This document shows positions 4,113 to 19,110 of a DNA stretch of 64,000 nucleotides, piece after piece (position 1 is the stretch's first letter; each line of letters starts with the position of its first letter). A program made the translations under genes and the position numbers. The stretch is taken from positions 26,429-90,428 of the forward strand of contig JBCCFW010000006.1 of NCBI GenBank assembly GCA_039029535.1, given 5' to 3'. The notes beneath the pieces were generated by a model that ran no database searches, was not told the DNA's origin, and saw only the letters and a list, made by a program, of their open reading frames with translations. The stretch is from Acidobacteriota bacterium. Lineage in GTDB: Bacteria > Acidobacteriota > JBCCFW01.

Positions 4113-5123
4113 GTGAAGAACTCCAAGCTGGAAATCGCCGTCGGGGCCTTCGTGCTCTTCGGAGTGGCGCTGATCCTCTTCGGCGTCTTCACGATCCGCG
4201 GCATGGGGCTCACGCCGACCGAGACCTATCACGCGGTCTACCGCAACGTGAACACCATCGACGTCGGCGCCGCGGTCAAGTACAACGGCAAGCTGGTCGG
4301 TCGAGTCGAGGCCGTGAACATCGATCCCGATGATGGTCGCTTCATCCGGGTCGAGTTCTCCCTCGCGGCCACCACGCCCATCACCGACGACCTGATCGCC
4401 AAGATCACCAAGGCCGACCTCCTCGGCGACGAGTACGTCGACCTCCGCACGACCGACCAGTCCATCCACCCGTCGGGTCGTCCTCCAGTGCGTCGCGAGC
4501 TCCCGCCGGGCAGTCGCATCGAGGGCGGCGAGCCCTTCGATCTCCAGCGGGCGCTCGAGGGCTTGCAAGACGCCATCGGTCGCGTCGATCAGCTCATCTC
4601 GACGGTGACGGTCGAGCTCGAGGCCGCGCTGAAGAAGGGCAACGACATCCTGGCGCAGGCCGAGGGCCTCGTGTCGGAAGACAACCAGGCGGCGGTGAAG
4701 ACGGCGCTGGCCGATCTCCAGGCGACGACGGGTCGCTTGCGGGAGGTCATCGACCGCGAGTCGCCGAAGATCGGCACCATCCTGGGCAACGTCGAGGAGG
4801 CTTCCTCGAGCGTGAGCTCGGCGGCCGGCAAGATCGAGACGAGCCTCGACGAGACCCTGCGCGACTTCGCGCCGCGCTTCCACCGCTTGCAGGACCAGCT
4901 CGAGAAGTCGCTCACCGAGGTGCAGTCGGCGCTGGAGTCGTTGAGCACGGCGGTGTCCTCGCTCGACCTGGAGCGGGTCGACGACCTCGTGGAGAACCTG
5001 GAGCTGAGCTCGCGTCACCTGGCGGAGTTCACCCGGGAGATCAAGCAGCGTCCGTCGGCGCTCATCCGGAAGCAGCCTCCCCCGCAGCGCGAGTTCCGGG
5101 ACAAGAAGAAGGACCGCAAGTGA
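4113..5123 (+). CDS. mlaD: MCE/MlaD protein with long helical C-terminal region
   Basis: N-terminal TM (VGAFVLFG), GAAVKYNGKLVGRV, LLGDEYVDL, coiled-coil tail ending RPSALIR. Confidence 0.9.
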   Translation: MKNSKLEIAVGAFVLFGVALILFGVFTIRGMGLTPTETYHAVYRNVNTIDVGAAVKYNGKLVGRVEAVNIDPDDGRFIRVEFSLAATTPITDDLIAKITKADLLGDEYVDLRTTDQSIHPSGRPPVRRELPPGSRIEGGEPFDLQRALEGLQDAIGRVDQLISTVTVELEAALKKGNDILAQAEGLVSEDNQAAVKTALADLQATTGRLREVIDRESPKIGTILGNVEEASSSVSSAAGKIETSLDETLRDFAPRFHRLQDQLEKSLTEVQSALESLSTAVSSLDLERVDDLVENLELSSRHLAEFTREIKQRPSALIRKQPPPQREFRDKKKDRK

Positions 5124-5728
5124 ACCGCTGGCGCACGACCTTCCTCCTCCTGCTGGCCGGTCTCGGCCTGGGCTGCTTCGGCAAGACGCCGGTGCATCGG
5201 GTCTGGAGTCTCCAGGCCGAGGACGACGCGGTCGTCACGACGCGCACGGCGCCGTCGCTGGGGCTGGCGCACTTCACGTCCGATGCGCCCTTGCGCACGA
5301 CCAAGCTCACCTGGCGCGAGGGTGACGGCCGCGAGCTCCGTCAGTACGGCTACCACTCCTGGTCGGACTACCCCGACCGCATGCTGGAAGAGCTGACGCG
5401 ACGCTCCTTCGAGGCCAGCGGCGACTTCTCACGCGTGGACGTGTTGCCTCCGGCGCAGGGCCACGACGCGATCTTGCGCTGTCGTCTCGTGCGCTTCCAC
5501 GAGTCCCAGCGCGCTGATGCCCACGAGGTGCAAGTGAGCGTCCGCTGGCGTCTCACCACCCCGGGCGGCACCCCCATCGACTCGGACCGCACCGACGCCA
5601 CCGCCCCGGTGAAGGCCGGCAACGTCGAAGCCGTCATCGACGCCTACGACGAAGCGACCCATGCGCTCGTCACCAAGCTCCGCGAGCAGGTCCTCGCGAG
5701 CCTCGCCAAGGCGAAGAGCGAGAGCTAG
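5120..5728 (+). CDS. PqiC-like ABC-transport auxiliary lipoprotein
   Basis: Lipobox LGLGC; YGYHSWSDYPDRML motif; follows the MCE gene with a GTGA overlap. Confidence 0.8.
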   Translation: MNRWRTTFLLLLAGLGLGCFGKTPVHRVWSLQAEDDAVVTTRTAPSLGLAHFTSDAPLRTTKLTWREGDGRELRQYGYHSWSDYPDRMLEELTRRSFEASGDFSRVDVLPPAQGHDAILRCRLVRFHESQRADAHEVQVSVRWRLTTPGGTPIDSDRTDATAPVKAGNVEAVIDAYDEATHALVTKLREQVLASLAKAKSES

Positions 5729-5763: not shown

Positions 5764-6092
5764 CGCCACTGAGTAGCGGCGTTCAGGGTGCGTCAGGCGT
5801 GGTCATGAGCCGAGCCAGCGGCGTCCGCCACTGAGTAGCGGCGTTCAGGGTGCGTCAGGCGTGGTCATGAGCCGAGCGAGCGGCGGCGACGCCTACATCA
5901 GTAGGCGAGCGCCGCGAGTCGAAAGTGAAGGGCCGCGAATGGCGTGCCATGGACGCCGCTACGGAGTAGCAGGAGCGCCGGTGCGTCAGATGGGGCGATG
6001 AGCCGAGCGAGCGCGGCGGAGCCTACATGAGTAGGTGAGCACGCGCGAGTCGAGAGCGAAGCGTCCCAGATGACGTGCCGCCGCCCTGCTAC
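5764..6092. repeat. Cluster A of palindromic REPIN/MITE-like elements: one partial copy (62-bp period duplication) and full copies at about 5836-5961 and 5967-6091
   Basis: Terminal inverted ends GTAGCGGCGT...ACGCCGCTAC and GTAGCAGG...CCTGCTAC; shared core ATGAGCCGAGCGAGCG...CCTAC-N4-GTAGG...CGAGTCGA(A/G)AG(T/C)GAAG; lies between convergent genes. Confidence 0.85.
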
Positions 6093-8806
6093 GGGCAGCC
6101 GGCGGGGAAGCGGGTGTTGAAGTCCGTATCGGATCCAAACGTGTCATCCGAGCACGCCATCCCCTCACACCGCGCCAGGTACCAATACCCCTGCGCTCGC
6201 CCACCGCCGGGCAGGGCCTGCTCCGGCGGCGACGCGTCGATCTCGATGCGGAGGTTCACCGGCATCGACACGATGAGGCAGCCGGGATCGGTCATCGTCA
6301 GGTCGCTCGTCGTCCTGAGCAGTCCGAGGTCGCCACGCAGCAGCGTGTAGACGGCGGCGCCGACATCGGTCCAGCTCACCACGTCGTCGGGCTCGTCGCG
6401 ATCGACTTGCAGCCGGAAGGGCGGCGGCGGAGGCGTTCCGACGTTGAGGAAGACCGTCACGTCGTTGGTCGCGCCCGAGAGCAGGGCGACGTCCGGCAGC
6501 AGGTCGCCGTCGAGGTCGGTCGCCACCAGGCCGAGGTTGTCGAGGTTGGTGCCGAGCCGCAGCGGGGCCGCCACCATGCCGTCGCCGAGCGACTCGAGGA
6601 GGGTCAGGCGGTTGGCGTTGGCCACCGCGAGGTCGTCGATGCCGTCGCCCGACAGGTCCGCCACGACGATGTCGCGAGGCCCGGGCGAGACGCCGACGTT
6701 CACCACGGGCATGCCCAGCGAGCCTCCCGACTCGAGGTAGACCAGGAGGCTGCCCGAGCGCTCGAGCACCGCCAGGTCGTCCGCTCGCATGTCGCCGTCA
6801 AAGTCCCCGATGCGGAGCGAGTCGATGGTCACGAAGCTCTCGTTGAAGGGATCGGGGAGCGAGAGCATGTCGGTGAGGGCCCAGCCGCTGCCGTCGTCGG
6901 TGTAGAGGAAGAGCTGGGGTCGACCCGCTCCGGGAGCGGCGCTGTCCTTGCCGGCCACCACCACGGTGCCGGTGCCGAGATCGGGCATCCAGAGATGGTC
7001 CTGCGGCAGGTTGAAGCCGCCGACGATGTCGGCCATCGTGAAGCCGCCCATCCCGTCGCCGTGCCAAATCTCGAGCTCGGGGGTGATGGCGTCGTTCACG
7101 ACCACGAGGTCGAGCGCCCCGGGCGTCGCCGGGAGCCCGGCCGGACGCGAGGTGCCGCTGATGCCCAGCGCCACGCCGGGATCGAAGCCACCGAGACGGC
7201 CCGGATGGAGCGCGTGATCGGACACGGTGCCGACGAGAAGGTCGGGACGGGCGTCGCCGTCGAAGAGGTCGACCAGCAGCTCACGCACGCCCCCAGGGGC
7301 TCCCGGAGCGATGCCACTGGACTGCCCGAAGGAACCGTCGCCGGCTCCGGGCAGGAGGCCGAGCGAGCCATCACCACCACTGCCGATGACCAGGTCGGCA
7401 GCGGCGCTGACCGACTGCCGATTCACGGCCAGGGCCGTCGGTCCCTTGAGACCCGAAGCGAATGAGCGGGGCGCGTCGAAGCGGCCCGTGCCGTCGTTGG
7501 TGAGGAGGGTGAGCGAGTTGCCGTCGGAGGCGGCGACCACCAGGTCGAGAGAGCCGTCGCCAGCGAGGTCGGCGGCAGTGACGCCACCAGGGCGCCGTGG
7601 CGCGAGGTCAGGCTGCGCATGGTGGAACTGCGCGTCGATGTTGAAGTCGAGGGTGGCGCCGGCCCGGCCGGGCACGATCCAGACCCAGTTGTGCCCCTGA
7701 CCGGCCGTGACGACGTCGCCCGCATCGGTCAAGACGAGGTCGTCGACGCCGTCGGGCGCGCTACCGACACCGGTCTCCCCCACCACGTCGGCGAGGATCA
7801 TGGCCGAGAGCCGGGTGTCCTCACGCTCGGTCGCAAGGGGCGCAGCCACGTCGAAGACGATGGGGTCGTCGAAGGCCTCCATCGTCGGGTCACCGTTGCC
7901 CGGGTAGAGGAGCACGAGCCCCTGCTCGGTGGCCACGAGCGCGTCGAGCCGCATGTCGCCGGTGAACTCGCCGGCGATGGCCTCCACCGGTGTCTGCATC
8001 GGGTAGCCGGCGGGGGCCACGGGCTTGGCGACGAGGAGGTCGTTGCTGATGCCGAACAGCGGCTGCCCCGGCCAAACCACGAGCTGCATTCCCGCCGAGT
8101 CGACGGTGAGGAGATCCGGCTGTCCCGCCGTGTCGATGTCGACGAAGTCCCCGACCTCGATGTCGACGAGCAGGCGCACGTTCACGCCGGCGGTGGCCGC
8201 GGGGAAGACCGTTACGAACGCGAAGCTTCCCGGCGCGCCCTGCCCGGCCGTCTTCACCTCCGAGCCGGTGCAGAAGAACAGGTCGACGAGCATGTCTTCG
8301 TTCCAGTCGAAGAGCGCGATGCTCGCGCCGTCACCCTGACCGGCCGAGGGGTCGCTGAAGGTCCAGGCTCCCATGGCGTTGATGTAGGAGAAGAAGCGCG
8401 CGCTGTCCTCGTTGGTGCCGACGAGATCGTCGACGAAGGTGTCGCCGTCGAGGTCGACGGCCCGAATGGCCGTGGGACGATCGCCCACCCGGGACTCGTC
8501 GCGGGGCGCCATGTCGTCGGGCTCGAGCACCACGTGCTCGGTGAAGCTGCCGTCGCCCTGATTCTCGAAGATGATGATGGCCGGGCCGGGCGTGTCGACC
8601 AGCACCGCCAGGTCGAGCACGCCGTCCATGCCGGCCGGCATGCTGTCGGAGTTGACGAAGTCACCCGCCACCACCGCCACCGGGTCGGTGAAGGAACCGA
8701 TCGAGATCTCGTTGCGACCCCGCAGCTCGATCACCGCGGCCGCCGGCAACGCGAACGCGCACAGGATGAGACCGACGAGACAGCTTCGAGAGGTCCTGCG
8801 GCTCAT
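6089..8806 (-). CDS. Secreted FG-GAP/VCBS-repeat beta-propeller protein with a C-terminal Cys-Pro domain
   Basis: Signal peptide (ALPAAA-V); many D(L/F)xGDxxxDL repeats; ends FPAGCP. Confidence 0.85.
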   Translation of the reverse strand: MSRRTSRSCLVGLILCAFALPAAAVIELRGRNEISIGSFTDPVAVVAGDFVNSDSMPAGMDGVLDLAVLVDTPGPAIIIFENQGDGSFTEHVVLEPDDMAPRDESRVGDRPTAIRAVDLDGDTFVDDLVGTNEDSARFFSYINAMGAWTFSDPSAGQGDGASIALFDWNEDMLVDLFFCTGSEVKTAGQGAPGSFAFVTVFPAATAGVNVRLLVDIEVGDFVDIDTAGQPDLLTVDSAGMQLVVWPGQPLFGISNDLLVAKPVAPAGYPMQTPVEAIAGEFTGDMRLDALVATEQGLVLLYPGNGDPTMEAFDDPIVFDVAAPLATEREDTRLSAMILADVVGETGVGSAPDGVDDLVLTDAGDVVTAGQGHNWVWIVPGRAGATLDFNIDAQFHHAQPDLAPRRPGGVTAADLAGDGSLDLVVAASDGNSLTLLTNDGTGRFDAPRSFASGLKGPTALAVNRQSVSAAADLVIGSGGDGSLGLLPGAGDGSFGQSSGIAPGAPGGVRELLVDLFDGDARPDLLVGTVSDHALHPGRLGGFDPGVALGISGTSRPAGLPATPGALDLVVVNDAITPELEIWHGDGMGGFTMADIVGGFNLPQDHLWMPDLGTGTVVVAGKDSAAPGAGRPQLFLYTDDGSGWALTDMLSLPDPFNESFVTIDSLRIGDFDGDMRADDLAVLERSGSLLVYLESGGSLGMPVVNVGVSPGPRDIVVADLSGDGIDDLAVANANRLTLLESLGDGMVAAPLRLGTNLDNLGLVATDLDGDLLPDVALLSGATNDVTVFLNVGTPPPPPFRLQVDRDEPDDVVSWTDVGAAVYTLLRGDLGLLRTTSDLTMTDPGCLIVSMPVNLRIEIDASPPEQALPGGGRAQGYWYLARCEGMACSDDTFGSDTDFNTRFPAGCP

Positions 8807-11508
8807 GGACACGGCCCGCCCGCCATGAAGCGGACGGTCCCCATCGAGTCCATGCCGAAGCCCAGCGTGCAGTCCGGCGACTCACAGCGCAGGAGGTAGT
8901 AGAACGCGGGCGGGTAATCGCCCACGGGCGCCGGCAAGGGATCCTCGTCCTCGTAGGTGAGCACGCCGCCGCTGGAGAGCAGGCAGGTGGGAGAGCTCAT
9001 CGCGAGGTCGCGGTTGGTCAGGAGCTGGCCGAGGTCTCCTCGCAGGAGCGACCAGGTCGCGCCAGGCTGAGGCGCCCAACCCCAGTCGGGGTTCCCATCC
9101 GCATCGGCATCGCCGGAAATGCGGAGCTGCAGCGAGGCGACGCTGGAGTTGCGGAAGACCGTGAGATCGCCGGTGGAGCCGGAGCTCACGACGAGCTCGG
9201 CGAGACCGTTGGCATCGAGATCGACGGCAGCCGCGGCCACCGGATCGATGTTGGCGCTGAAGCGCGTGGGCTCCACCGCGAAGACACCACCGCCGACGGC
9301 TTCGAGCACGGCCACGCCGGTGCGCGCCACCAGGACGATGTCGTCGATGTTGTTGCCGGTGAGGTCGGCGGCGAGCAGCGACTGCGTGCCCGAGGTGCCC
9401 GTGAGCGGCATGGGCATGGCGACCAGACCGGTGCCGTCACCGAGGAACAGGAGGACGAAGGACGCCACCGCCATCGCGACGTCGTCTCGCTGACCGTCTC
9501 CGTCGAAGTCACCGAGCACCGCACCGTCGATGCGGAAGCCCATGTCGAAGGGAGTCGGGAGAAGTTGAGCCTGCTCGAGCACGAGGGTCGCGCCCTCGCT
9601 TCGGTAGACGCTGACCTCGGTCCCCGTGCCACCGGCATTGTCGGCGACCACCACCACCTCGTCGGTGAAGCCGTCGACGATGTCGCCCGTGAGATGCGCC
9701 TGATAGCCCTGGAAGCTGGCGATCATGGTCGGCGCACCGAAGGCACCGGCGCCGTCGCCCTCCCGGAGCTGAAGCTCGAACTGACCGATGCCGCCCGAGG
9801 GGATGACCGTCGCGAGATCGAGGGCCGCGGCGCCGACGAGCTCGCCGCTGCGGCTCTCACCACCGAAGCCGAGGCTCATCGCGGGCAGGAAGTCACCACC
9901 CACGCGGCCACGATGAATGGCGTGCGCATCGGCGGCGGTCACGATCACGTCGGGGAAGGCGTCGGCGTCGAAGTTGCCGACCAGGAGCCCGGTGAAGGGA
10001 CCCAGCCCCGAGTCGCTGGCAGCGAGCGCCGGCTGCTGGAAGCCACCGATGCCGTCGGCCGCCAGGACCGAGAAGTCACGACCGCGAACGAGGGCGACGA
10101 GATCGTCGCTCCCCCCTTGCCGACGCACCGCCAGGTTGGACGGGTTGGTGAGCCCCGCCGCGTAGGACCGCCCGGCATCGAAGGTGCCGGCCGTGTTGCG
10201 GAAGAGCGAGAGCCCGCGCGTCGAGTCGAAGTTGACGAGCGCGATGTCGGGAGCCGGATCGGCGTCGAGGTTGGCGACGGCCAGGGAGCGATGGAGCTGA
10301 GTGCCGAGATCGGCAGCCGCGTAATGCACCTGCCCCACGACGTCGAAGCGCGGCGTCGGGGACATCGTGATGCCGGGGAGGATCCACAACCAGTTGAAGC
10401 CCTCCTCGCTGGTCGGGTCGCCCGCGTCCGAGATGATGAGGTCGTCGACGCCGTCGGGGCCTCCCCCGACACGGTTGACGACGTCGGCCAGGACCATCGA
10501 CGAGAAGCGCGTGGGAAGTCGGTCCGCGCCGGCCGAGAGGAAGCCGATCACGTCGGTCTCGGTCGGGGCGCCGAGGCCCGCTGCGAGATCGCTCGGGTAG
10601 AAGAGGAGGTAACCCTCCTCGGTCAACAGCAGCACGTCGGGTGAGCCGTCGGCGTCGAAGTCACGCGTGACCACCGAGGCCGGCGTCTGCACGGAGCCGC
10701 CCGCCATCACGGGGATGAGCCGCAAGGCGTCGTTGCGCACGCTGAACGGGAAGAGGTCGCCGGGCCAGATGACGAGCTGTCGGTTCTGGTTGTCGACGGT
10801 GAGAATGTCGGGAAGGTCGTCGTCGACACCTGGCGAGAGGGCGATGAAGTCACCGATCGCGATGTCGGTCTGCGCGCCGACGGTGGCGCCGGCCGGCAGG
10901 AAGACGTTCACGTCCGAGAAGGTGCCGGCACCCGATCGACCCGCGGTGCGGACGGCACCGTTGGTCGTGCAGGCGAAGAAGTCCGGCATCATGTCGCCGT
11001 CCCAGTCCTCCAGCGCGATGGCCGAGCCGGAGCCGCTGTTGGCGTCCATGTCGGTGGGCGCCCAGCCGCCCGGCCCGTTGGCGAGCGCGAAGAAGCGAGC
11101 GCTCTCCTGGTTCACCCCGACGAGATCGTCCTGCAGGGTGTCCCCGTCGAGGTCGGCCACCGTGAAGTCGGCGGGGTCGTTGCCCAGGGTGGACTGCGTG
11201 CCCATCTCCTCGGCGGTGATGGTGCAGGTTGGGCAGACGGAGAACCGACCGCTGCCGTCGTTCTGCAGGAGAACGATGGTGTTGCTTCCGGAGATGAGGA
11301 CCGCGAGGTCGAGATCCGGCGTGCCCGGCGGAGTGGACGTGGCGTTGAAGAAGTCCGCGGCCAGAACCGCCGTGGCCCCAGCGCCGACTTCGTCGAGGTC
11401 GGTGCGACCGACCAGAGACACCTCCGCCCAAGAGCTCTCGGCGACGATCGCGACCAGCGCGACCACGAGCACTCCACGGGCCCACACGCTCGATGGCTCA
11501 GCGTGCAT
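8803..11508 (-). CDS. Secreted FG-GAP/VCBS-repeat protein, tandem paralog of 6089-8806
   Basis: Signal peptide (SSWA-E); collinear with its neighbour (DDLVGxNxxSARFF; DGVDDLxxxDAGD; NWxWIxPG); ATGA coupling; ends GGPCP. Confidence 0.85.
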   Translation of the reverse strand: MHAEPSSVWARGVLVVALVAIVAESSWAEVSLVGRTDLDEVGAGATAVLAADFFNATSTPPGTPDLDLAVLISGSNTIVLLQNDGSGRFSVCPTCTITAEEMGTQSTLGNDPADFTVADLDGDTLQDDLVGVNQESARFFALANGPGGWAPTDMDANSGSGSAIALEDWDGDMMPDFFACTTNGAVRTAGRSGAGTFSDVNVFLPAGATVGAQTDIAIGDFIALSPGVDDDLPDILTVDNQNRQLVIWPGDLFPFSVRNDALRLIPVMAGGSVQTPASVVTRDFDADGSPDVLLLTEEGYLLFYPSDLAAGLGAPTETDVIGFLSAGADRLPTRFSSMVLADVVNRVGGGPDGVDDLIISDAGDPTSEEGFNWLWILPGITMSPTPRFDVVGQVHYAAADLGTQLHRSLAVANLDADPAPDIALVNFDSTRGLSLFRNTAGTFDAGRSYAAGLTNPSNLAVRRQGGSDDLVALVRGRDFSVLAADGIGGFQQPALAASDSGLGPFTGLLVGNFDADAFPDVIVTAADAHAIHRGRVGGDFLPAMSLGFGGESRSGELVGAAALDLATVIPSGGIGQFELQLREGDGAGAFGAPTMIASFQGYQAHLTGDIVDGFTDEVVVVADNAGGTGTEVSVYRSEGATLVLEQAQLLPTPFDMGFRIDGAVLGDFDGDGQRDDVAMAVASFVLLFLGDGTGLVAMPMPLTGTSGTQSLLAADLTGNNIDDIVLVARTGVAVLEAVGGGVFAVEPTRFSANIDPVAAAAVDLDANGLAELVVSSGSTGDLTVFRNSSVASLQLRISGDADADGNPDWGWAPQPGATWSLLRGDLGQLLTNRDLAMSSPTCLLSSGGVLTYEDEDPLPAPVGDYPPAFYYLLRCESPDCTLGFGMDSMGTVRFMAGGPCP

Positions 11509-11730
11509 GGCTACCTACCTTCCCGTTCCGGAGGGGCGGGCTCCCCTGGCCACGCCGCATCTCCGAAATTCTTGCCCTGTCCCACGAATCATGTCACTTC
11601 GCCACCCCTCACAGCACCGTCTGGTCGACGGATCACGGGCGGGCGCAGCGACGTCCCGAACGAGAATCTAGGCCGTCTCGCGGCCCCTGACCGTTCTCCT
11701 GACCGAGCAGCGAGGTCCGTTCGAGGTGAC

Positions 11731-13083
11731 TCAGGCCTCTCCAGGAGCCTCGTCGTCGCCGGTGGGCTCAGCTCCAGGCTCAGCCTCGTCCCCGACCTCG
11801 GGCTCGTCCTGGGGCTCTTCGTCCGGCGGGAGCTGGACGGGGAGCTCCGTGAGCTGACGCGAGACCTGCTGCACGGTCGTGACGAGGTCGGTGAGCCGAG
11901 AGCCCAGGGTCTCCCCGTGGGCGACCAGGCGCGACTCCCGCACGCGGAGACGGCTGATCTCGCGCTCGGCGCGCTGCGTCTCCTCGGCGTGCTCCGACTC
12001 CACCTCGGACTGTTGGGAGCGGAGGATCGCGACCTGCTTGATCTGCCGCTGGGCCTCGTGGGAAGCGGTGTCGCGCTCCTCCTCGAGACGGCTCCGGCTC
12101 TCCTCGAGAGCTTCGAGCCGGCGCTCCGCGTCGTCGAGACGACGGGCCAGGTCCTTCTTTTCCCGCTCGTGGCTGGCCGCCGACTGGAGCGCCTCGTCGA
12201 GCTCGGTCGTGAGGGCGGCGTTCTTCTGCTCGTGGAGCTTGGTCTCGCGCTCCAGCGTCTCACTGACGTGCTCGGCGCCGTGCTTGAGCTCGTCGCGTTC
12301 GCCGGTGAGCGCCTCGAGCTGGACCTCGAGCTCACCCCGCCGCTGCAGCAGGTGCTCTTCCCGCGCACGCAGCCGATCGAGCTCTTCCTCCGCGGTGGTG
12401 GCTCGCTCCTTGACGTTGGCGAGCTCCTCCCGGAGCGAGAGCTCCTGATCGCTCAGCTTCTTGTTGAGGTCGGCGACGGTCGCGCTGAGCTGGGAGATGA
12501 GGTCGTTCTTGCGCGAGACCTCGGAGCGCATCGAGGTGAGCTGCTCGTCGAGCGCCTCGGCACGCCCGCGCGACGGGACACCGGCGCCGGTGCGGAGCGC
12601 CGACTTGAGCTCGTTCTCGATCTCGTGCCACTCCTCCAGGAGTCCCTCGCCCGACGGCGTGCCGCCGACGGTCTCGGAGAAGGACTCCATCCGGGAGATG
12701 GCTGCCTGGAGCTGCTCGCCGACGACCTCTTCCCCCTCGGCCTGAAGGGCGCCGAGCAACCCTCCCTCGGGCTCGGACGGCGGTCCGTCCGGCGCGGGAG
12801 GGTTGACGTCGGGGATCGGCAGGGGCGCCGAGACGGTCATCGGGTCGTCGTCGAGAGGCGCTGGCGCCGGCGGGCCGGCCGCCTGCCCTTCGTCGACACC
12901 CTGGGATCCGGCGTCTCGCAGCGACCCGAGCAGGTCGCCTCCCTCGTCGGAGTCCTGACCGGAGAGGTTGGCCACGGCACCTTCGCTGTCGGCGCGCAGC
13001 TCACCGAGGAGGTTGTCGCCCTCGGAGTGCTGGTCGCCTCCGGCGCCCGGCTGCTGGCCCTTCTGCTCGTCCTGAGTCGCCAT
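11731..13083 (-). CDS. Acidic disordered plus long coiled-coil protein of unknown function
   Basis: E/R/L-rich heptad-like region of more than 200 aa flanked by P/E/D-rich ends; start taken at MATQDEQ. Confidence 0.7.
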   Translation of the reverse strand: MATQDEQKGQQPGAGGDQHSEGDNLLGELRADSEGAVANLSGQDSDEGGDLLGSLRDAGSQGVDEGQAAGPPAPAPLDDDPMTVSAPLPIPDVNPPAPDGPPSEPEGGLLGALQAEGEEVVGEQLQAAISRMESFSETVGGTPSGEGLLEEWHEIENELKSALRTGAGVPSRGRAEALDEQLTSMRSEVSRKNDLISQLSATVADLNKKLSDQELSLREELANVKERATTAEEELDRLRAREEHLLQRRGELEVQLEALTGERDELKHGAEHVSETLERETKLHEQKNAALTTELDEALQSAASHEREKKDLARRLDDAERRLEALEESRSRLEEERDTASHEAQRQIKQVAILRSQQSEVESEHAEETQRAEREISRLRVRESRLVAHGETLGSRLTDLVTTVQQVSRQLTELPVQLPPDEEPQDEPEVGDEAEPGAEPTGDDEAPGEA

Positions 13084-13190
13084 CCCGAATCTCGAGCCTC
13101 CAGCCCTCATGTTAGCATTTCGGCCCCGATTCTCCTTCTTTGGAGTCTGCGCCACGGGGTCCGCGCGGATCCTGGAGCCCCCATTTCACC

Positions 13191-13742
13191 GTGAACGCGC
13201 TCGACGTGGCGATCGTCGCCATCGCCTGCATCCCCACGCTGATCGGGCTCGCCAAGGGCCTGGTGAACGTCGGGACGGCCCTGGTCGGCACCTGGGCGGC
13301 CTTCCTGCTCGCCCCCCTCATCGCCTCCCTCCTGCACGGCCCCCTGCGCTCGGCGCTAGGTCACGAGGGGCTGGCGGAGGTTCTCGCCTACGCGGCGGGA
13401 TTCGTCACCGTGCTGCTGGCCGTCGGCGTGGCGGGCTGGCTCCTGACTCGGTCGCTCAAGAAGCTCGACCTCAACTGGGTGAACCGACTCGGCGGCGCCT
13501 TCCTGGGCCTGGCCTGCGGCATCCTGCTCTCGGGCGTGCTCGTCGCGGCGGTGAATTACGTGGGCCCCTCGTCGGCCCTTCGCCAGGGCTCGGTCCTCGC
13601 GGGGCCACTGACCTTCGTCACCGGCTGGCTCGTCCGCTTGCCCGAACGCCAGACCGAGGGCGAGGCGGAACCGTCGGACGGCGGGACCGAGGAGGGCGCG
13701 CCTGCCTCGACCCCGGCCACTGCACCCGCGACGGGCGGTTGA
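13191..13742 (+). CDS. cvpA: CvpA family membrane protein
   Basis: MNALDVAIV...GLAKGLV; LNWVNRLGGAFLGLACG. Confidence 0.88.
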   Translation: MNALDVAIVAIACIPTLIGLAKGLVNVGTALVGTWAAFLLAPLIASLLHGPLRSALGHEGLAEVLAYAAGFVTVLLAVGVAGWLLTRSLKKLDLNWVNRLGGAFLGLACGILLSGVLVAAVNYVGPSSALRQGSVLAGPLTFVTGWLVRLPERQTEGEAEPSDGGTEEGAPASTPATAPATGG

Positions 13743-13851
13743 TCGGCCTCGCCCCCGCCCTGGTTCCCTCGCGAACGGGGCGGCATGATGACGAGGCGGT
13801 TCGGGTCGCCTCCACTTTCCAGCGACGCCCCGTCCGCTCAGGCCGTCGCCC

Positions 13852-14937
13852 GTGACCCAGCGACCGCGAAACCACCTCGTCGTCAAGCTCTTCCCGTCCC
13901 TGCCTCGAGCAGGCTTCGGGGGACGCTGGCTGACCCAGTGGCTGGAGCGGAACTTCTTCTACCGGGAGTACCGCTTCACGCCCTGGAAGTCCGCCCTGGT
14001 CGTCCTTGGGCTGCTGCTGGGCGTGACCTGGTGCGTGGTGTCCCTGCTCTTCAGCTGGCTGGCTCTCGAGCGGGCCGAGGCCCTGCGACTCGACGTGGTC
14101 CAGCGTCAGCAGCAGGCGCGCGACGCCCGCTGGGAGGCAGCCCTCGCCCGACGCGATGCCGCCGTGCTGGAGGCGCGACTGGCCCCCCTCGACGACCGTG
14201 TCCAGCGGCTCTCGCGGCTGGGTCGCGACCTCGCGATCATCACGGGGATGGACGACCTCGCCGCCGAGCTCGACGACGCGATCCACGCGGAGCAGCCCGA
14301 GGATCGCGCCATCGCCGATGCCCAGCTCTCCCTGGAAGAGCTCGAGCAGCGCTACGACCGGCTGTCGGCCCATGCCGACAACCTCGAGTTCGAGCTCGCG
14401 CACACGCCCTCGATCTCGCCGCTGGACCCCGGGTTCGTGCCGACCGACCGCTACGGCTACCGCGTCCTGCGGGGGCTCATGGCAGCGTCGGGTGGGAAGA
14501 GCCGGCAGTTCCACGCGGGCCTGGACCTCGCCGCCCCCACCGGCACGCCGGTCCACGCGACCGCCGACGGCACGGTGCACTACGCCGGCCGGGTGTCCCG
14601 CAAGCAGAACGCCCGGGTCGCCAACTACGGCAACTTCGTCGTCCTCGACCATGGGAACGGAATCCGCACGGTCTACGCCCACTGCGACCGCCTGGCGGCC
14701 GAATCCGGGGCGGAGGTCCGGCGTGGCGACCTCATCGGCTGGGTCGGCTCGACGGGACGCTCGACCGGCCCGCACCTGCACTACGAGGTCATCGTGGACG
14801 GCCGGCCCCAGGACCCCGAGCTCTTCATCCTCGACATCGACATCCCCGGCCGGCGGGTGAAGGTCGAGCGCGATACCAGCCCCTCTCCCATCATGGAGGA
14901 GGTTGATAGACTCTTGCCCCCCGGCGGAGGCAAGTAG
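13852..14937 (+). CDS. M23 family peptidoglycan endopeptidase with TM and coiled coil
   Basis: HAGLD (HxxxD), YAHC, GSTGRSTGPHLHYEV. Confidence 0.93.
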   Translation: MTQRPRNHLVVKLFPSLPRAGFGGRWLTQWLERNFFYREYRFTPWKSALVVLGLLLGVTWCVVSLLFSWLALERAEALRLDVVQRQQQARDARWEAALARRDAAVLEARLAPLDDRVQRLSRLGRDLAIITGMDDLAAELDDAIHAEQPEDRAIADAQLSLEELEQRYDRLSAHADNLEFELAHTPSISPLDPGFVPTDRYGYRVLRGLMAASGGKSRQFHAGLDLAAPTGTPVHATADGTVHYAGRVSRKQNARVANYGNFVVLDHGNGIRTVYAHCDRLAAESGAEVRRGDLIGWVGSTGRSTGPHLHYEVIVDGRPQDPELFILDIDIPGRRVKVERDTSPSPIMEEVDRLLPPGGGK

Positions 14938-14960
14938 CCCGGCTTTCGAGAGGCTCCCCC

Positions 14961-15695
14961 ATGGCAGACGAACGCTCTCAGACCCTGGACATTCCCGAGG
15001 GAACCAGCTTCGAGTTCAAGGACGGCAAGCTGATCTTCGGGCACGAGTCCGACATCTACATCCGGACCAACCTGGGCGGCTACAAGTTCGCCAAGATCTT
15101 CTCGAAGCACGGCTCGGTCCGCGTGCTCCCGCCCCAGGGCGTGGAGTTCGAGGTCGACGAGATCGAGGCCCTCGAGGGCGACGTCCAGGTCGACGGCTTC
15201 GTGCGGGTGCAGACGGCGCGCTCCGCGTCGATCACCTTCCACGAAGGGCGTCTCACCGCCGACCGTCTCGAGGCGACGCAGGGCATCGTCCTCGATGGCG
15301 GCACCGTCTCGGTGCTGCACGCCAAGGCGCCTTCGGTGAACATCGGCGAGAAGACCGAGGGCACCTGCCTGGTGGTCGAGTCCGACAAGCCCATGGGTCC
15401 CGTCCGCGTGCACGGTGGGTTCGGCAGCATCGACGAGGCGAAGAAGCTCTTCGATCGCTTCGCAGGCCTCGGCAGCGCGAGCAGCAGCAGCGGCGGAAGC
15501 GCGAGCAGCAGCAGCGCTCCGGCCACGCCGGCGGCCTCGGCCGAGACGACCTCGGGTCAGTCTGGCAAGCCCCTGGAGAGCACCCAGGAGATCCCGGCCC
15601 AGGCCATCGCCCAGGCCGTCCAGGCCGACAAGCCCGCCGAGCCGACCTCGACTCCGCCGCTCCCGAAGTCCTCGGTGTTCAGGAAGAGAAAGTAA
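14961..15695 (+). CDS. Hypothetical protein, possible bactofilin-like beta-helix with a low-complexity tail
   Basis: Short V/I-x-V/I-x-G strands (GDVQVDGFVRV...ITFHEGRLTA...IVLDGGTVSV...VNIGE); directly downstream of the M23 gene. Confidence 0.5.
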   Translation: MADERSQTLDIPEGTSFEFKDGKLIFGHESDIYIRTNLGGYKFAKIFSKHGSVRVLPPQGVEFEVDEIEALEGDVQVDGFVRVQTARSASITFHEGRLTADRLEATQGIVLDGGTVSVLHAKAPSVNIGEKTEGTCLVVESDKPMGPVRVHGGFGSIDEAKKLFDRFAGLGSASSSSGGSASSSSAPATPAASAETTSGQSGKPLESTQEIPAQAIAQAVQADKPAEPTSTPPLPKSSVFRKRK

Positions 15696-15725
15696 GCGAG
15701 TCGACGCCGACCACTACCCGGAAGC

Positions 15726-16054
15726 TCCTCGCAACGAAATCGCGAGGAGCGCCGGTGCGTCGGATTCGGCCATGAGCCGAGCGAGCGAGCCGAGGTCCCG
15801 TCCGTTTGGATCCGAGGAATGAGGCTACGCCGGTAGTTGAGGGCGAGCGAGTCGAGAGCGAAGGCCCGAGGACGGCGTGCCGCCGCCCTTCGCGCTCACG
15901 TGTAGCTGAGGATCCTCGCAACGGAATCGCGAGGAGCGCCGGTACGTCGGATTCGGCCATGAGCCGAGCGAGCGAGCCGCAGGCTACGCCGGTAGCTGAG
16001 GACGAGCGAGTCGAGAGCGAAGGGCCGAAGACGGCGTGCCGCCGCCCTCGCGAT
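15726..16054. repeat. Cluster B of the same palindromic element family (two tandem copies, about 15726-15894 and 15913-16054)
   Basis: GAGGAGCGCCGGT(G/A)CGTCGGATTCGGCCATGAGCCGAGCGAGCGAGCC...GGCTACGCCGGTAG...CGAGTCGAGAGCGAAGG...GACGGCGTGCCGCCGCCC occurs twice; the first copy carries an insertion of about 28 nt; lies between convergent genes. Confidence 0.87.
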
Positions 16055-19000
16055 CACTTGATGATCTTGGTGACCAGCAATTCGGCCGTCAGATCACCCT
16101 CCAGCTCGGGGTGATCGCTCGACGACAGCACGGTGCCGACGCCGAAGGTGACGAAGGTGCCCCAGGGGCCGGGGACCGTGCCGGAGACGCCGGCGCCGAC
16201 GTGGTCGCTCCACTCGCGGGCGTCCGGTCCGACGCTGGTCACGCCCTGACGGTCCCGCGTCCGCGCCAGGCCGATCTCGCCCGACACGCCGAAGCGGCCG
16301 AAGAGGTCCAGCCCGTACGACAGGTCCACCATGGCCAGGTCGTCGAAGTGCAGGCCCGAGCCGCCGAAGCCCGGGAGGTTGGGCTCACCGAACGAGCGGA
16401 ACTGATGCTGGCTGAAGCGATCGAGCGAGCTGCCGCTGCGCCAGGCGGCTCCTACCGAGAGGCGCTGCGCAGCCGGTAGCAGCCACACGCCCTCGATGGA
16501 TGCGCCGTAGCGCCAGTAGGAGTCCGGGCTCTCGGTGAGACCACTGCCGTCGTCGATGCCCCAGGGCTCCCAGTCGAGACGATGTCCTCGCTCGACGAAG
16601 GTCTTGAGCTCGATCGAGTCTCGACGCCATTCACCGTTGAGCCGCAAGCGAGCGACGAGCCCGTCCTCCGGCAAGACGAAGGCCGGGTCGGTGTCGTCGG
16701 TGTCGCTCCAGTTCTCGTGCTCGAGACGCAGGGCGAGACCGAGACGCCCCCCCTGCCCCATGGCTCGCGACACGCCGACCTCGAGATGCGGCCGCCGCGC
16801 CTTGACCCGCAGCGCGTCGATCGTGCCCTCGCCCTGACGACGCAAGCGATCGCTGCGCGCGATGAAAGGAGCGAAGAGCTCGGCGTTGGCCTCGAAGCGC
16901 GAGTTGCCGATCTGAGGATCGGAGAGCGTGATCGTGTTGATGGCGCCGGCGAGGAAGGCATTGAGCTGCCAGCCCTTCCCACGGAAGTCGTGGTCGAGCC
17001 AGTTCACGCCCGCCAAGGGGAGCACGCCGGAGTAACCGGGGTCGTAGCGAGCCCCCGCGATCGCCAGGATCTTGCGCGTCGACGGATCGGACAGCTCCCG
17101 CTGGCCCTCCTCGTTCTTGCGCAGGTAGCGGAAGCCCTCCTCGGTGTCGCGCAGCACCTGATTGTCGGACGCCATGACCTCCGCGCGAACCCGGGCGAAG
17201 TCCGACGGGTTGAGCCGGTGGTCGCTGTAGTCCTGACGCATGTCGATGACCACCGTCGCACCGATGATGGTCACCGCTCGCTGGATCTCCGAGTGCGTGA
17301 TGACCATGACGTCGTCGCCTTCTGGCGTGGTCATGGTCTCGAAGTAGTCCGTGCGCTGATCGGACAGCAGTGGCGCCTCGAGCCCTTCCTCGACCGACTT
17401 CACGCGGAGACGCTGGAAGGTCACCGCATCGATCCAGATCGTCCCCTGCACGCGACGCGACTGCGTGGCCAGGGGCTCGAAGGACACCTTGAAGGCCGCA
17501 CGATCGGAGACCGTCTCGCGTCCGAGCAAGCGGTACTGGTAGTGCTTGTCGAGGTACACGCCGAGCGGCGCGACGGTCACCTTCTCCGGCTGCAGCAGCG
17601 GAAGCTCGGGGAGCTTGTTCTTGCCCTTGAGAGGTGCGCCGTTGACGAAGTATTGCCGGTTCTCAACCTCGCGGAGCCCGTCCTCTTCGAGGTAGCCACC
17701 GTCGATGCGCACCTCGATGGCCCGACCCGAGCCGCCCAGGCGGTAGCGCATCTGCGTCGAGAGCTCGGCGGTCCAGCGTGAGAGCGCTCGCTGCTCGCGA
17801 GCCTGCACGCGCAGGTAGCGCGACATGACCTCGTCGACCGTCCACTCGCGCTCGGACGCGACGGCGATGTCCTCGTCGAGATCGTCTAAGCGCTCGCGTC
17901 GAGCGAGCTCGAGGACCAGCGGTCGATCGGCCAGCTCGAGTCGCAGTCGCGAGCGGTCCTCGGCGTCGATGCGCAGCAAGCCGGGCAGTCGCCCCGAGCG
18001 CTCCCCGGCCGGATCGTGAAGTCGGGGGTCGTCGAGCGCGGAGGAGGAGAAGTGCAGGACCACCGCGTCCGGTCCGCCAGCGGCTGGCTGGACCACGATG
18101 CGCGAGGAGAGGTCGGGCAGCACCCAGCGCTGCCACGTCACGCCGCCGGCAGGCTCGACGCGGACGAAGGGCTCACCCACCTCGACGGCCGGTCGGGCCT
18201 CCGGCGGCAGGGCGTTGCCCAGCACCGCCAGGCCGGCGAGCTCGTCCTCGCTCAGCGTGCTGGCCGAGAGCACCGCCAGCTCGGGCCCCGTGCCGAGCAG
18301 CTCGAGGGCCGCGCGCCAGGCCTCACCGGCACCGGCGGCAGTCCGCTCGACGTGGGCTGCCGTGCCGTCCTCCCGGGCCAGGAGCGAGCGAATCGACGCC
18401 CGCGAGCCGGCGTCGAGCCCCGCGTGGACGTACCCGGCCAGGAAGGGAGCGACGCCCTGGGCGAGCAGCTCCTGCTGACGGGCCAGGGGATCGCCGGCGA
18501 CTGGGACCGCGCCGGCCCAGGTCGGCAGGCGCGGGTCGCCGGCGGCCACCGCCAGCGAGGTCTTCTTGAGGAGGAAGGCCTGCTCCTTGACGCCGGGGGC
18601 GGTCGCATCGGCGGCCCAGCCAGTGGCCACGATGGCCACGGGGATCTCGAGCTTCGAGCAACGTCCGGCCAGCTCGGTGACGAAGTCGTCCCAGCCTGCC
18701 TGCTCGCCGGCCACCAGCGGGCTGTCGTGGCCCTCGGGCGTGGGCCCCACGACCTCGAAGAGCAGGCCGGAGAGCCCCTCCTCGGCCACCCGCGTGAGTC
18801 GGTCGACGGCGTCCCAGTCGCGGAGCCCGGGCAGTGCTTCGATCTCGTTCCAGGGCACGCGGACCCAGAGGGTCGGCGAGCGCTCCTCACCCGGGCTCAG
18901 GGCCGCCAGGTCGGAGGCGACGGCGACGGCGCGGCCGAGCTCGGTCGAGAGCGCCAGGCCCCGCGGGCCTTCCTTTCGCTCCGCCGAGTCTTGGGCCGTC

Positions 19001-19110
19001 ACGGCCACCGCCGATAGCAGGAAACAGAGCCCTGCCGCCCGGATGGCGCGTCGGCCCGCTGGTGTAGTCTTGGCGGCTCTTTCGATGACCCGCGACTCGC
19101 TCTGGCTCAT
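16054..19110 (-). CDS. Large exported protein: N-terminal glycoside-hydrolase-like region, LolA/RseB-like middle, C-terminal beta-barrel
   Basis: Signal peptide; WVRVPWNEIEALPG..DWDAVD; YQYRLLGRETVSDRAAFKVSFEP..GTIWIDAVTF; alternating strands at the C-terminus. Domain calls by eye. Confidence 0.6.
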   Translation of the reverse strand: MSQSESRVIERAAKTTPAGRRAIRAAGLCFLLSAVAVTAQDSAERKEGPRGLALSTELGRAVAVASDLAALSPGEERSPTLWVRVPWNEIEALPGLRDWDAVDRLTRVAEEGLSGLLFEVVGPTPEGHDSPLVAGEQAGWDDFVTELAGRCSKLEIPVAIVATGWAADATAPGVKEQAFLLKKTSLAVAAGDPRLPTWAGAVPVAGDPLARQQELLAQGVAPFLAGYVHAGLDAGSRASIRSLLAREDGTAAHVERTAAGAGEAWRAALELLGTGPELAVLSASTLSEDELAGLAVLGNALPPEARPAVEVGEPFVRVEPAGGVTWQRWVLPDLSSRIVVQPAAGGPDAVVLHFSSSALDDPRLHDPAGERSGRLPGLLRIDAEDRSRLRLELADRPLVLELARRERLDDLDEDIAVASEREWTVDEVMSRYLRVQAREQRALSRWTAELSTQMRYRLGGSGRAIEVRIDGGYLEEDGLREVENRQYFVNGAPLKGKNKLPELPLLQPEKVTVAPLGVYLDKHYQYRLLGRETVSDRAAFKVSFEPLATQSRRVQGTIWIDAVTFQRLRVKSVEEGLEAPLLSDQRTDYFETMTTPEGDDVMVITHSEIQRAVTIIGATVVIDMRQDYSDHRLNPSDFARVRAEVMASDNQVLRDTEEGFRYLRKNEEGQRELSDPSTRKILAIAGARYDPGYSGVLPLAGVNWLDHDFRGKGWQLNAFLAGAINTITLSDPQIGNSRFEANAELFAPFIARSDRLRRQGEGTIDALRVKARRPHLEVGVSRAMGQGGRLGLALRLEHENWSDTDDTDPAFVLPEDGLVARLRLNGEWRRDSIELKTFVERGHRLDWEPWGIDDGSGLTESPDSYWRYGASIEGVWLLPAAQRLSVGAAWRSGSSLDRFSQHQFRSFGEPNLPGFGGSGLHFDDLAMVDLSYGLDLFGRFGVSGEIGLARTRDRQGVTSVGPDAREWSDHVGAGVSGTVPGPWGTFVTFGVGTVLSSSDHPELEGDLTAELLVTKIIK

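Follow-up and report, generated by a model that had tools for sequence, protein, structure and literature searches.

Palindromic intergenic repeats are common, and for most of their families we know of no established mechanism of spreading and no established cellular use. The repeats treated here belong to an Acidobacteriota bacterium (assembly GCA_039029535.1) and were noticed in a stretch of 64,000 nucleotides (nt) of contig JBCCFW010000006.1, hereafter the window (C6:26429-90428). They form rod-shaped hairpins, called rods below, with five helices (P1 at the base to P5 at the tip) and two purine-rich blocks, which contain the tags GAGCGA on the 5' arm and GAGTCGA on the 3' arm. We take the copies, with a probability of about 0.55, for lineage-specific non-coding rod-shaped hairpin repeats of about 130 nt, of the REP/REPIN/ERIC/SPRITE kind and with an anatomy of their own. 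A so far undescribed family, whose own anatomy combines variable termini with a conserved internal G-A stack, is the best-supported description.

ERIC/IRU elements of Enterobacteria, usually treated as miniature inverted-repeat transposable elements, are imperfect palindromes of 127 base pairs (bp), with 30 copies in E. coli K-12, 150 in Salmonella and 711 in Photorhabdus (PMC10969869). Rods share with them a similar size (127-129 nt), tens of copies, a location in intergenic regions and at gene 3' ends, and a fold into one long imperfect hairpin in the transcript, predicted in the case of rods. They differ in lacking any sequence similarity, in their varying termini, in the absence of a consistent target duplication and in having purine-rich internal loops as their most constant part. 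The stems of ERIC are said to evolve by compensating changes, reportedly the finding of Wilson and Sharp in 2006.

Convergent open reading frames (ORFs) often have REPs near their 3' ends, at distances below 20 bp, and REPs with a CGTC tag occur without a dedicated transposase (PMC3733652). REPs, REPINs and the GTAG/CGTC repeats (PMC3733652 and PMC3116915) resemble rods in their variable-stem hairpins, short conserved unpaired tags and arrangement in clusters or dimers. Extragenic placement by ORF 3' ends and enrichment between convergent genes are also found for rods. However, REPs are 20-40 bp long with the tag at one end, whereas rods measure 127-135 nt and carry internal tags on both arms. 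The two rod tags are direct repeats of each other, and GTAG stands at the start of P1 in only three of 16 copies (window copies A and B and the copy on contig C44). A REPIN-like doublet was considered and rejected, as the local palindrome GCTCGG(C)...(G)CCGAGC is confined to those copies in which P3 matches the conserved block by coincidence.

Compared with miniature inverted-repeat transposable elements, rods are likewise small (below about 400 bp), non-coding, multicopy and able to form a stable hairpin, but possess neither conserved terminal inverted repeats nor a target duplication. Pneumococcal repeats insert into one another, and SPRITE resembles a Rho-independent terminator (PMC10969869). 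Likenesses between BOX, RUP and SPRITE and the present family are the nested arrangement on contig C148 and the U-tailed relatives in genome G074, both described below; sequences and host phylum are unrelated, and rods of the present genome have no U-tract. Correia/NEMIS elements of Neisseria are transcribed hairpin-forming intergenic repeats that shape mRNA processing, with cleavage by RNase III (PMC10969869). Rods are hairpin-forming intergenic repeats as well. Correia elements have conserved terminal inverted repeats of 26 bp, a TA duplication and promoters, none of which is seen in rods. The heptamer-repeat hairpins reportedly described by Rehm and colleagues in 2015 are, like rods, intergenic hairpins at gene ends, and have arms of tandem 7-nt units and their complements, unlike the arms of rods, which consist of unique sequence with non-complementary purine blocks.

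Copies in the window and in the genome

An earlier note, made from the letters of the window alone, had listed four full copies and one partial copy in two clusters between convergent genes. Direct reading and a repeat finder agree, with all copies on the plus strand. Copy limits run from P1 to P1, and bit scores are those of covariance model (CM) R1:

5773-5825, plus strand: half copy A', with the 5' arm of P1, P2, the 5' arm of P3 and the 5' purine block only; partial nhmmer match C6:32196-32251
5835-5962 (128 nt), plus strand: full copy A, P1 GTAGCGGCGT/ACGCCGCTAC; 107.9 bits
5966-6092 (127 nt), plus strand: full copy B, top match to the family model; 140.7 bits
about 15739-15896, plus strand: full copy C, in which P4 and P5 are separated by an additional arm of about 28 nt (about 15793-15820); 109.5 bits
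15926-16054 (129 nt), plus strand: full copy D, P1 ATCGCGAGG/CCTCGCGAT, 88% identical to copy C over aligned columns; 139.8 bits

Half copy A' belongs to a tandem duplication, 62 nt long, that repeats the beginning of copy A, positions 5764-5823 being 98% identical to 5826-5885. The copy number of this duplication is backed by the present assembly alone. Logan contigs of the probable source run break within it (5793-5848), and no variant form of the region is seen in the Logan contigs of runs X1-X3. Tandem 5' half copies occur upstream of full copies at three loci.

The assembly (G000) is a metagenome-assembled genome (MAG) of 8.0 Mb in 340 contigs, with 68.5% G+C and 83% completeness; the only sequencing run with window DNA is labelled marine metagenome. 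With a hidden Markov model of the four window copies, nhmmer yields 25 matches across the genome, and 26 in a second round, 16 of them full length. CM R1 yields 27 matches at E<=0.01, of which 16 score 94.7-140.7 bits and are located on 13 contigs, the next match reaching 51.3 bits. The family described in the earlier note from the window thus comprises 16 full copies, besides fragments. Pairwise identities among these copies are 50-88% (median 70%). Two short hairpins, C108:15810-15900 and C106:13620-13676, retain only P1-P2(-P3) and resemble symmetric internal deletions of full copies.

Secondary structure, covariation and strand

The copies possess a common fold. P1 (6-10 bp) forms the base, differs in nearly every copy and is followed by a bulged A, P2a (GCG/CGC), a C-C mismatch in 15 of 16 copies, and P2b (CGGUGCGUCA/UGACGUGCCG) with tandem U-G/G-U pairs in 16/16 and 15/16 copies. 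Above P2b the rod continues with a 2x2 purine step, the variable P3 (7 bp), AUGA facing GAAG, GCC/GGC and GA facing CGAR, and ends with GC/GU, GA facing GA, P4 and P5 (CCUAC-N4-GUAGG and variants). In copy B the parts are arranged as follows, all on the plus strand:

5966-5973/6085-6092: P1
5975-5977/6082-6084: P2a
5978/6081: C-C mismatch
5979-5988/6071-6080: P2b
5989-5990/6069-6070: GA/GA
5991-5997/6062-6068: P3
5998-6010: 5' conserved block ATGAGCCGAGCGA, including the tag GAGCGA; near-invariant columns
6011-6015/6042-6046: P4
6021-6026/6031-6036: P5
6047-6061: 3' conserved block GAGTCGAGAGCGAAG, including the tag GAGTCGA

The pairs named in the earlier note are all present, for P3 (CGTGGTC/GGCCGCG, TGGGGCG/CGTCCCA, TTCGGCC/GGCCGAA), for P5 (CCTAC-N4-GTAGG, GCTAC-N4-GTAGC/T) and for the P1 termini. 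So are its two near-invariant purine blocks, with a variant in copy A, whose 3' block reads GAGTCGAAAGTGAAG in place of GAGTCGAGAGCGAAG. ATGAGCCGAGCGA has 17 exact matches in the genome, 10 on one strand and 7 on the other.

Compensatory change in the stems, claimed from the window copies, is real and extends to the 16 genomic copies: changes on both sides are found in 28 of 44 pairs. Standard pairs occupy 91.5% of 692 cells, compared with 78.1% (standard deviation 0.8) after shuffling and 32-40% with partners slid by 1-3 columns. For these 16 copies, none of 500 shuffles matches the observed value on any of five measures, the copies behind these shuffle statistics being related sequences. The slid controls and the number of double-change pairs make a structure-free explanation unlikely.

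In the given orientation, G-U/U-G pairs occupy 90 of 704 cells and A-C/C-A pairs 13, and the sense RNA fold is more stable than that of the reverse complement in 15 of 16 copies (minimum free energy of the 16 copies -73.6 to -101.8 kcal/mol with 12-nt flanks). Because of the G-U excess over A-C and the stabler sense fold, one strand is the one kept foldable. This asymmetry points to selection on a single-stranded fold of one strand, be it RNA or single-stranded DNA (ssDNA), as the earlier note had proposed.

Complementarity of palindrome stems in DNA is renewable by templated mutation without selection. The covariation might then be a by-product of templated quasipalindrome correction, the copies being neutral palindromes without a selected fold. 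Such an origin fits the elements as long DNA palindromes, the presence of tandem slippage products and the symmetric internal deletions that keep the hairpin base (C108, C106). But templated correction gives Watson-Crick arms and explains neither the 90 G-U against 13 A-C cells nor the invariant tandem U-G/G-U of P2b, and it would erase the near-invariant unpaired purine blocks on both arms; we regard it as highly improbable.

The purine blocks themselves follow a regular scheme. Alignment columns 28-149 and 48-127 are G-A in 16/16 copies, columns 49-126 are A-G in 15/16, and columns 29-148 are G-A in seven copies and A-G in seven. In the copy on contig C142 the AUGA/GAAG "loop" is swapped for four Watson-Crick pairs, which implies that the positions of the purine blocks are apposed within one uninterrupted helix. 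To judge by sequence, the blocks may be read as four to five tandem G-A/A-G steps with single-base bulges. The description of the loops as kink-turn-like, given in the earlier note, was not upheld. Opposed GA dinucleotides and the exchange of G-A for A-G, a signature of sheared tandem G-A, are common to kink-turns, tandem G-A RNA motifs and rods. However, the three-nucleotide bulge that defines a kink-turn is absent, the consensus sequence having bulges of 0-1 nt beside the G-A steps, and rods stack four to five G-A steps along one rod, 2-7 bp apart.

Position relative to genes

The 16 copies represent 13 loci, mostly between convergent genes. At 10 of these loci the last copy ends, on its 3' side, within -7 to +10 nt of the stop codon of an opposite-strand gene, in several cases with the stop inside P1. 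A co-oriented gene ends 28-82 nt upstream at eight loci, to which cluster 1 and the locus on contig C233 add two; the co-oriented upstream gene and the opposite-strand downstream gene are both present at 8/13 loci. The clusters of the window are flanked by the following genes:

5120-5728, plus strand: ABC-transport auxiliary lipoprotein gene (Pfam PF03886, E 2e-14); stop 44 nt before half copy A'
6089-8812, minus strand: FG-GAP repeat protein gene (Pfam match); stop codon 6089-6091 within the 3' arm of P1 of copy B (distance -4)
14961-15695, plus strand: upstream ORF of cluster 2 (G+C at third codon positions 0.90, no Pfam match); stop about 44 nt before copy C
16054-19110, minus strand: opposite-strand ORF of cluster 2 (G+C at third codon positions 0.88, no Pfam match); stop 16054-16056 (distance 0)

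Base 16054 is common to the stop codon of the last of these and the P1 end of copy D. Closeness to convergent 3' ends is known for REPs; the copies show in addition a consistent 5'/3' asymmetry of placement. A replication-strand rule was considered and rejected, since GC skew of the sense strand is negative (C-rich) at eight loci and positive (G-rich) at five, and one contig whose skew is constant contains two loci with opposing orientations.

Orientation following genes, with 10/13 loci flush, and not replication (8 vs 5) favours the main rival of a spreading repeat. Rods would here be host-serving modules of the 3' untranslated region (UTR) that end or insulate convergent transcription and stabilise mRNA 3' ends, their multiplication would be deployment, and a putative dedicated RNA-binding protein would read the G-A stack. 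This differs from our preferred reading mostly in who benefits, and we hold it possible, if tentatively. That all copies are foldable despite identities of only 50-88% also speaks for it, whereas the lack of a U-tract, a partner protein that is only putative, and the tandem half copies and deletion derivatives typical of spreading repeats speak against it.

Searches for enzymes, target duplications and known families

The partner transposase of the RAYT/IS200 kind, suggested in the earlier note, was not found: Y1_Tnp (PF01797), IS110 and TnpB have 0 matches in the 83%-complete assembly, and control genomes gave PF01797 matches in the same search. Insertion sequences often stay unbinned in MAGs, which limits the absence of a transposase from an incomplete genome. 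The longest flanking direct repeats of the copies are 4-9 nt long, with p<=0.07 in only 4/16 and the rest at chance level, and one of the four is explained by tandem arrangement. P1 termini comprise at least 10 different sequences among 16 copies and accordingly form no conserved terminal inverted repeats. Nowhere does a pair of element halves enclose an ORF; what lies within the one split copy is another small repeat.

No canonical terminator or promoter consensus is called on the window copies, in keeping with the earlier note, which saw in the element something more complex than a simple terminator. In this genome no U-tract follows the rods, the 3' flank being the coding end of the opposite gene. 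At gathering thresholds no Rfam 15 family matches any part of the window. Across cluster 1 a single chance match (E=2.2) appears, and at the related loci of other genomes nothing relevant; the comparison with catalogued families proposed in the earlier note therefore returned none. Integron attC sites were rejected as well, as the outer stems have no R''/R' cores (RYYYAAC ... GTTRRRY). Copies are either scattered over 13 contigs or arranged directly in tandem, without cassettes between them; no search for an integrase was made. A description of these elements or tags was not found in the literature, most subscription journals being beyond the reach of the search.

An element read as folded ssDNA by an HUH endonuclease or a tyrosine recombinase, as are IS200/IS605 ends, REPs and attC, would need no RNA role. 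The strand asymmetry fits this, as G-T is the best-tolerated mismatch in DNA hairpins too; so do the absence of a consistent target duplication, the nested insertion on C148, which entered a hairpin loop, and the Y1 genes in all five tag-rich genomes tested (see below). But the present genome has 0 Y1_Tnp matches, outer stems are without attC core sites, and none of six examined Y1 loci of the tag-rich genomes has tags within 1.5 kb. Because of the missing Y1 gene and the missing replication-strand rule, with opposite orientations on one constant-skew contig, reading as ssDNA alone is weakened and appears unlikely.

Sister family, nested copy and empty site

A sister family (family 2) has 21 genome matches of at least 60 bits, and 42 at E<=1e-3. 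Its outer helices (TTTCGTGTCCTGGC/GCCAGGGCGCGAAA) differ from those of the rods of the window (family 1), and the apical domain GAGCGA-P4-P5-P4'-GAGTCGA is common to both. The sense fold is more stable in 20/21 family-2 copies. For 11/21 copies the distance of the 3' end from an opposite-strand stop is between -30 and +6 nt, generous hairpin limits inflating the negative values. Examples, all outside the window, are:

C256:4025-4271: family-2 element
C18:5040-5169: family-2 element
C136:10249-10384: family-2 element
C5:9640-9775: family-2 element

The family-1 copy at C148:11060-11379 (minus strand) is split in its P5 loop into a 5' part (11306-11379) and a 3' part (11060-11128). Nested within this loop is a complete family-2 element (11148-11281, plus strand, E 3.9e-16) of opposite orientation, with its own 16-bp terminal stem. 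Nested insertion, too, is typical of spreading repeats and counts against host-serving modules.

Empty and filled sites could be compared at one place, the SmpB locus. The nearest relative, G001, which is the sole genome from the same taxonomic family (SmpB 54% identical), has the same convergent gene pair with a spacer of 34 nt, which contains a small hairpin and no element; in the source genome a rod fills the spacer from stop to stop. That the rod here takes the place of a small hairpin spacer speaks for the host-serving alternative. No further empty sites were obtained in G001: the glutamate dehydrogenase and PnbB-like neighbours are not syntenic, and dTDP-sugar epimerase was not found with the query used.

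Related hairpins in other Acidobacteriota

The rod model has no match in 40 relatives at E<=1e-4, a best match of 19.7 bits (E 0.48) in G001, and weak matches in four of 150 other genomes of the phylum. This patchiness, including absence from same-family G001, again disfavours a host module. A pattern of 30 nt that spans P2b and reaches the 5' block matches five places in the collection genome_contigs and three in metagenome_contigs, both of which may leave out the window's own genome. As the CM matched none of these eight, they are attributed to chance; the single CM match at E<=1 at the pattern-scan loci is elsewhere in L042, with 12.5 bits.

Some genomes from other families contain a strong excess of the tag pair GAGCGAG...(C)GAGTCGA, with a spacing of 23-53 nt. 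The tally covers 401 genomes of the phylum, including G151 and G023 (flagged unpublished), on neither of which any claim is based. Counts of tag pairs and of the reversed control are:

G074 (family f27): 34 tag pairs, 1 reversed control
G247 (family f50): 20 tag pairs, 0 reversed control
G238 (family f27): 16 tag pairs, 0 reversed control
G197 (family f69): 9 tag pairs, 0 reversed control

Tag excesses in G304, G227 and G173 look like coding matches by eye and were not counted as families. A genome-wide count of loose tags in G000 is swamped by coding matches and was left unused.

In the listed genomes the tags flank hairpins whose stems vary between copies yet remain complementary, and these hairpins are probably related to the rods. 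In G074 the helix of four pairs beside the tags is complete in 21 of 31 instances (GCGC/GCGC 10, GCCC/GGGC 6, GTCC/GGAC 2), and 88.7% of cells pair, compared with 75.0% after shuffling (maximum 81.5%). Copies are found at most 360 nt downstream of a co-oriented gene in 24/29 cases, and a CTYGGTTTT-like tail, resembling an intrinsic terminator in sense orientation, follows 15/29. The position relative to genes and these tails favour a sense-strand RNA; they are also in line with a service to the host, as is the retention of the loop motif across families of the phylum.

Y1 transposase genes are present in each of the five tag-rich genomes tested, with 3-12 matches per genome (39 in total); tags are absent within 1.5 kb of the Y1 loci at the six examined of these 39 matches.

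G074 (3.4 Mb; loci L054-L056, L058, L063, L068-L087) contains at least 34 hairpins of the type (ATTGTC)ATCCC-GAGCGA-helix-GAGTCGA-GGGAT(CTTGGTTTT). A second hairpin subtype is flanked by GGAATCCCTA, and hairpin pairs of opposite orientation occur at L074, L083 and L087.

Origin and possible function

The earlier note had left open a non-coding RNA motif or a non-autonomous mobile element. The nested element, the absence from a syntenic site and the patchy tags strengthen the mobile option. For a repeat of the REP/REPIN/ERIC/SPRITE kind, which we prefer, the elements would spread, or would once have spread, without target duplication by a mechanism that needs a folded single strand. Transcripts of the co-oriented upstream gene would carry the G-U-bearing strand in their 3' UTR, as gene-relative orientation and the U-tailed relatives of G074 suggest, and selection would keep every copy foldable. 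The G-A stack (GAGCGA/GAGUCGA) may offer a surface to a putative trans-acting protein, either a mobilising enzyme or an RNA-binding factor. The rod could also separate convergent transcription units and protect mRNA 3' ends, whether as a by-product or in a co-opted role.

Several results weigh against this account. No close pair is present among the dispersed copies, and recent movement is thus not shown. Comparable syntenic empty sites amount to a single one, neither a transposase match nor a target duplication above the levels given was obtained, and stems may be renewed without selection, as stated above. Concerning transcription, the loci on C1 and C142 have only the flush opposite-strand gene and no co-oriented upstream gene within 200 nt, and thereby no 3' UTR position, and rods here are not followed by a U-tract. 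The link between rods and the tagged hairpins of other genomes consists of tags of 6-7 nt, a shared architecture and three weak CM matches (E 1e-4 to 7e-4).

GAGCGA/GAGUCGA might further be a stacked double tandem-G-A loop with a bulged C, serving across the phylum as an RNA recognition module for a putative conserved protein on gene-end transcript hairpins, with the 130-nt rods, and their four to five G-A steps, as an elaborated, U-tract-independent and orientation-specific 3'-end or insulator signal between convergent genes. We consider this rather doubtful; if true, it would represent a new class of protein-dependent terminator or stabiliser, beyond a selfish repeat.

The main interest of the family is in its conserved loop module and its stop-codon-flush and strand-specific placement. 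Strong covariation, a clear functional strand, a fixed rule of placement at stop codons and a short G-A-rich loop are handles for further work. Hairpins of distant genomes in the phylum, unrelated in other respects, have this loop too, and it may serve as bait for a candidate reader protein. As a simple search key for annotation, the tag pair helps to avoid spurious ORF calls in acidobacterial MAGs. Should rods end or insulate convergent transcription without U-tracts, this would bear on termination in GC-rich bacteria.

Further features of copies and flanks

Genes neighbouring the copies are unrelated housekeeping genes, among others those of SmpB, glutamate dehydrogenase, methionine aminopeptidase, a Cdc48-like ATPase, NAD synthase (NadE) and a PduO-type adenosyltransferase; Pfam identifies no transposase among them. 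YNGA(R) directly precedes P1 in 10/16 copies with a strict pattern and in 13/16 by eye, and contains too little information to be claimed as a 5' leader motif.

Copy C (arm 15793-15820) and the copy at L011 (C64:28767-28936) are otherwise different and have in common an extra arm of 28-36 nt, GAGGTC.CGTCCG...GGAATGAG. This arm between P4 and P5 may represent either an optional branch or a small insertion of older date. In front of copies C and D (15713-15747 and 15900-15934), and only in that subfamily, CCTCGCAACGRA repeats the 3' arm of P1 (CCTCGC), and could pair with the 5' arm of P1 into an alternative small hairpin.

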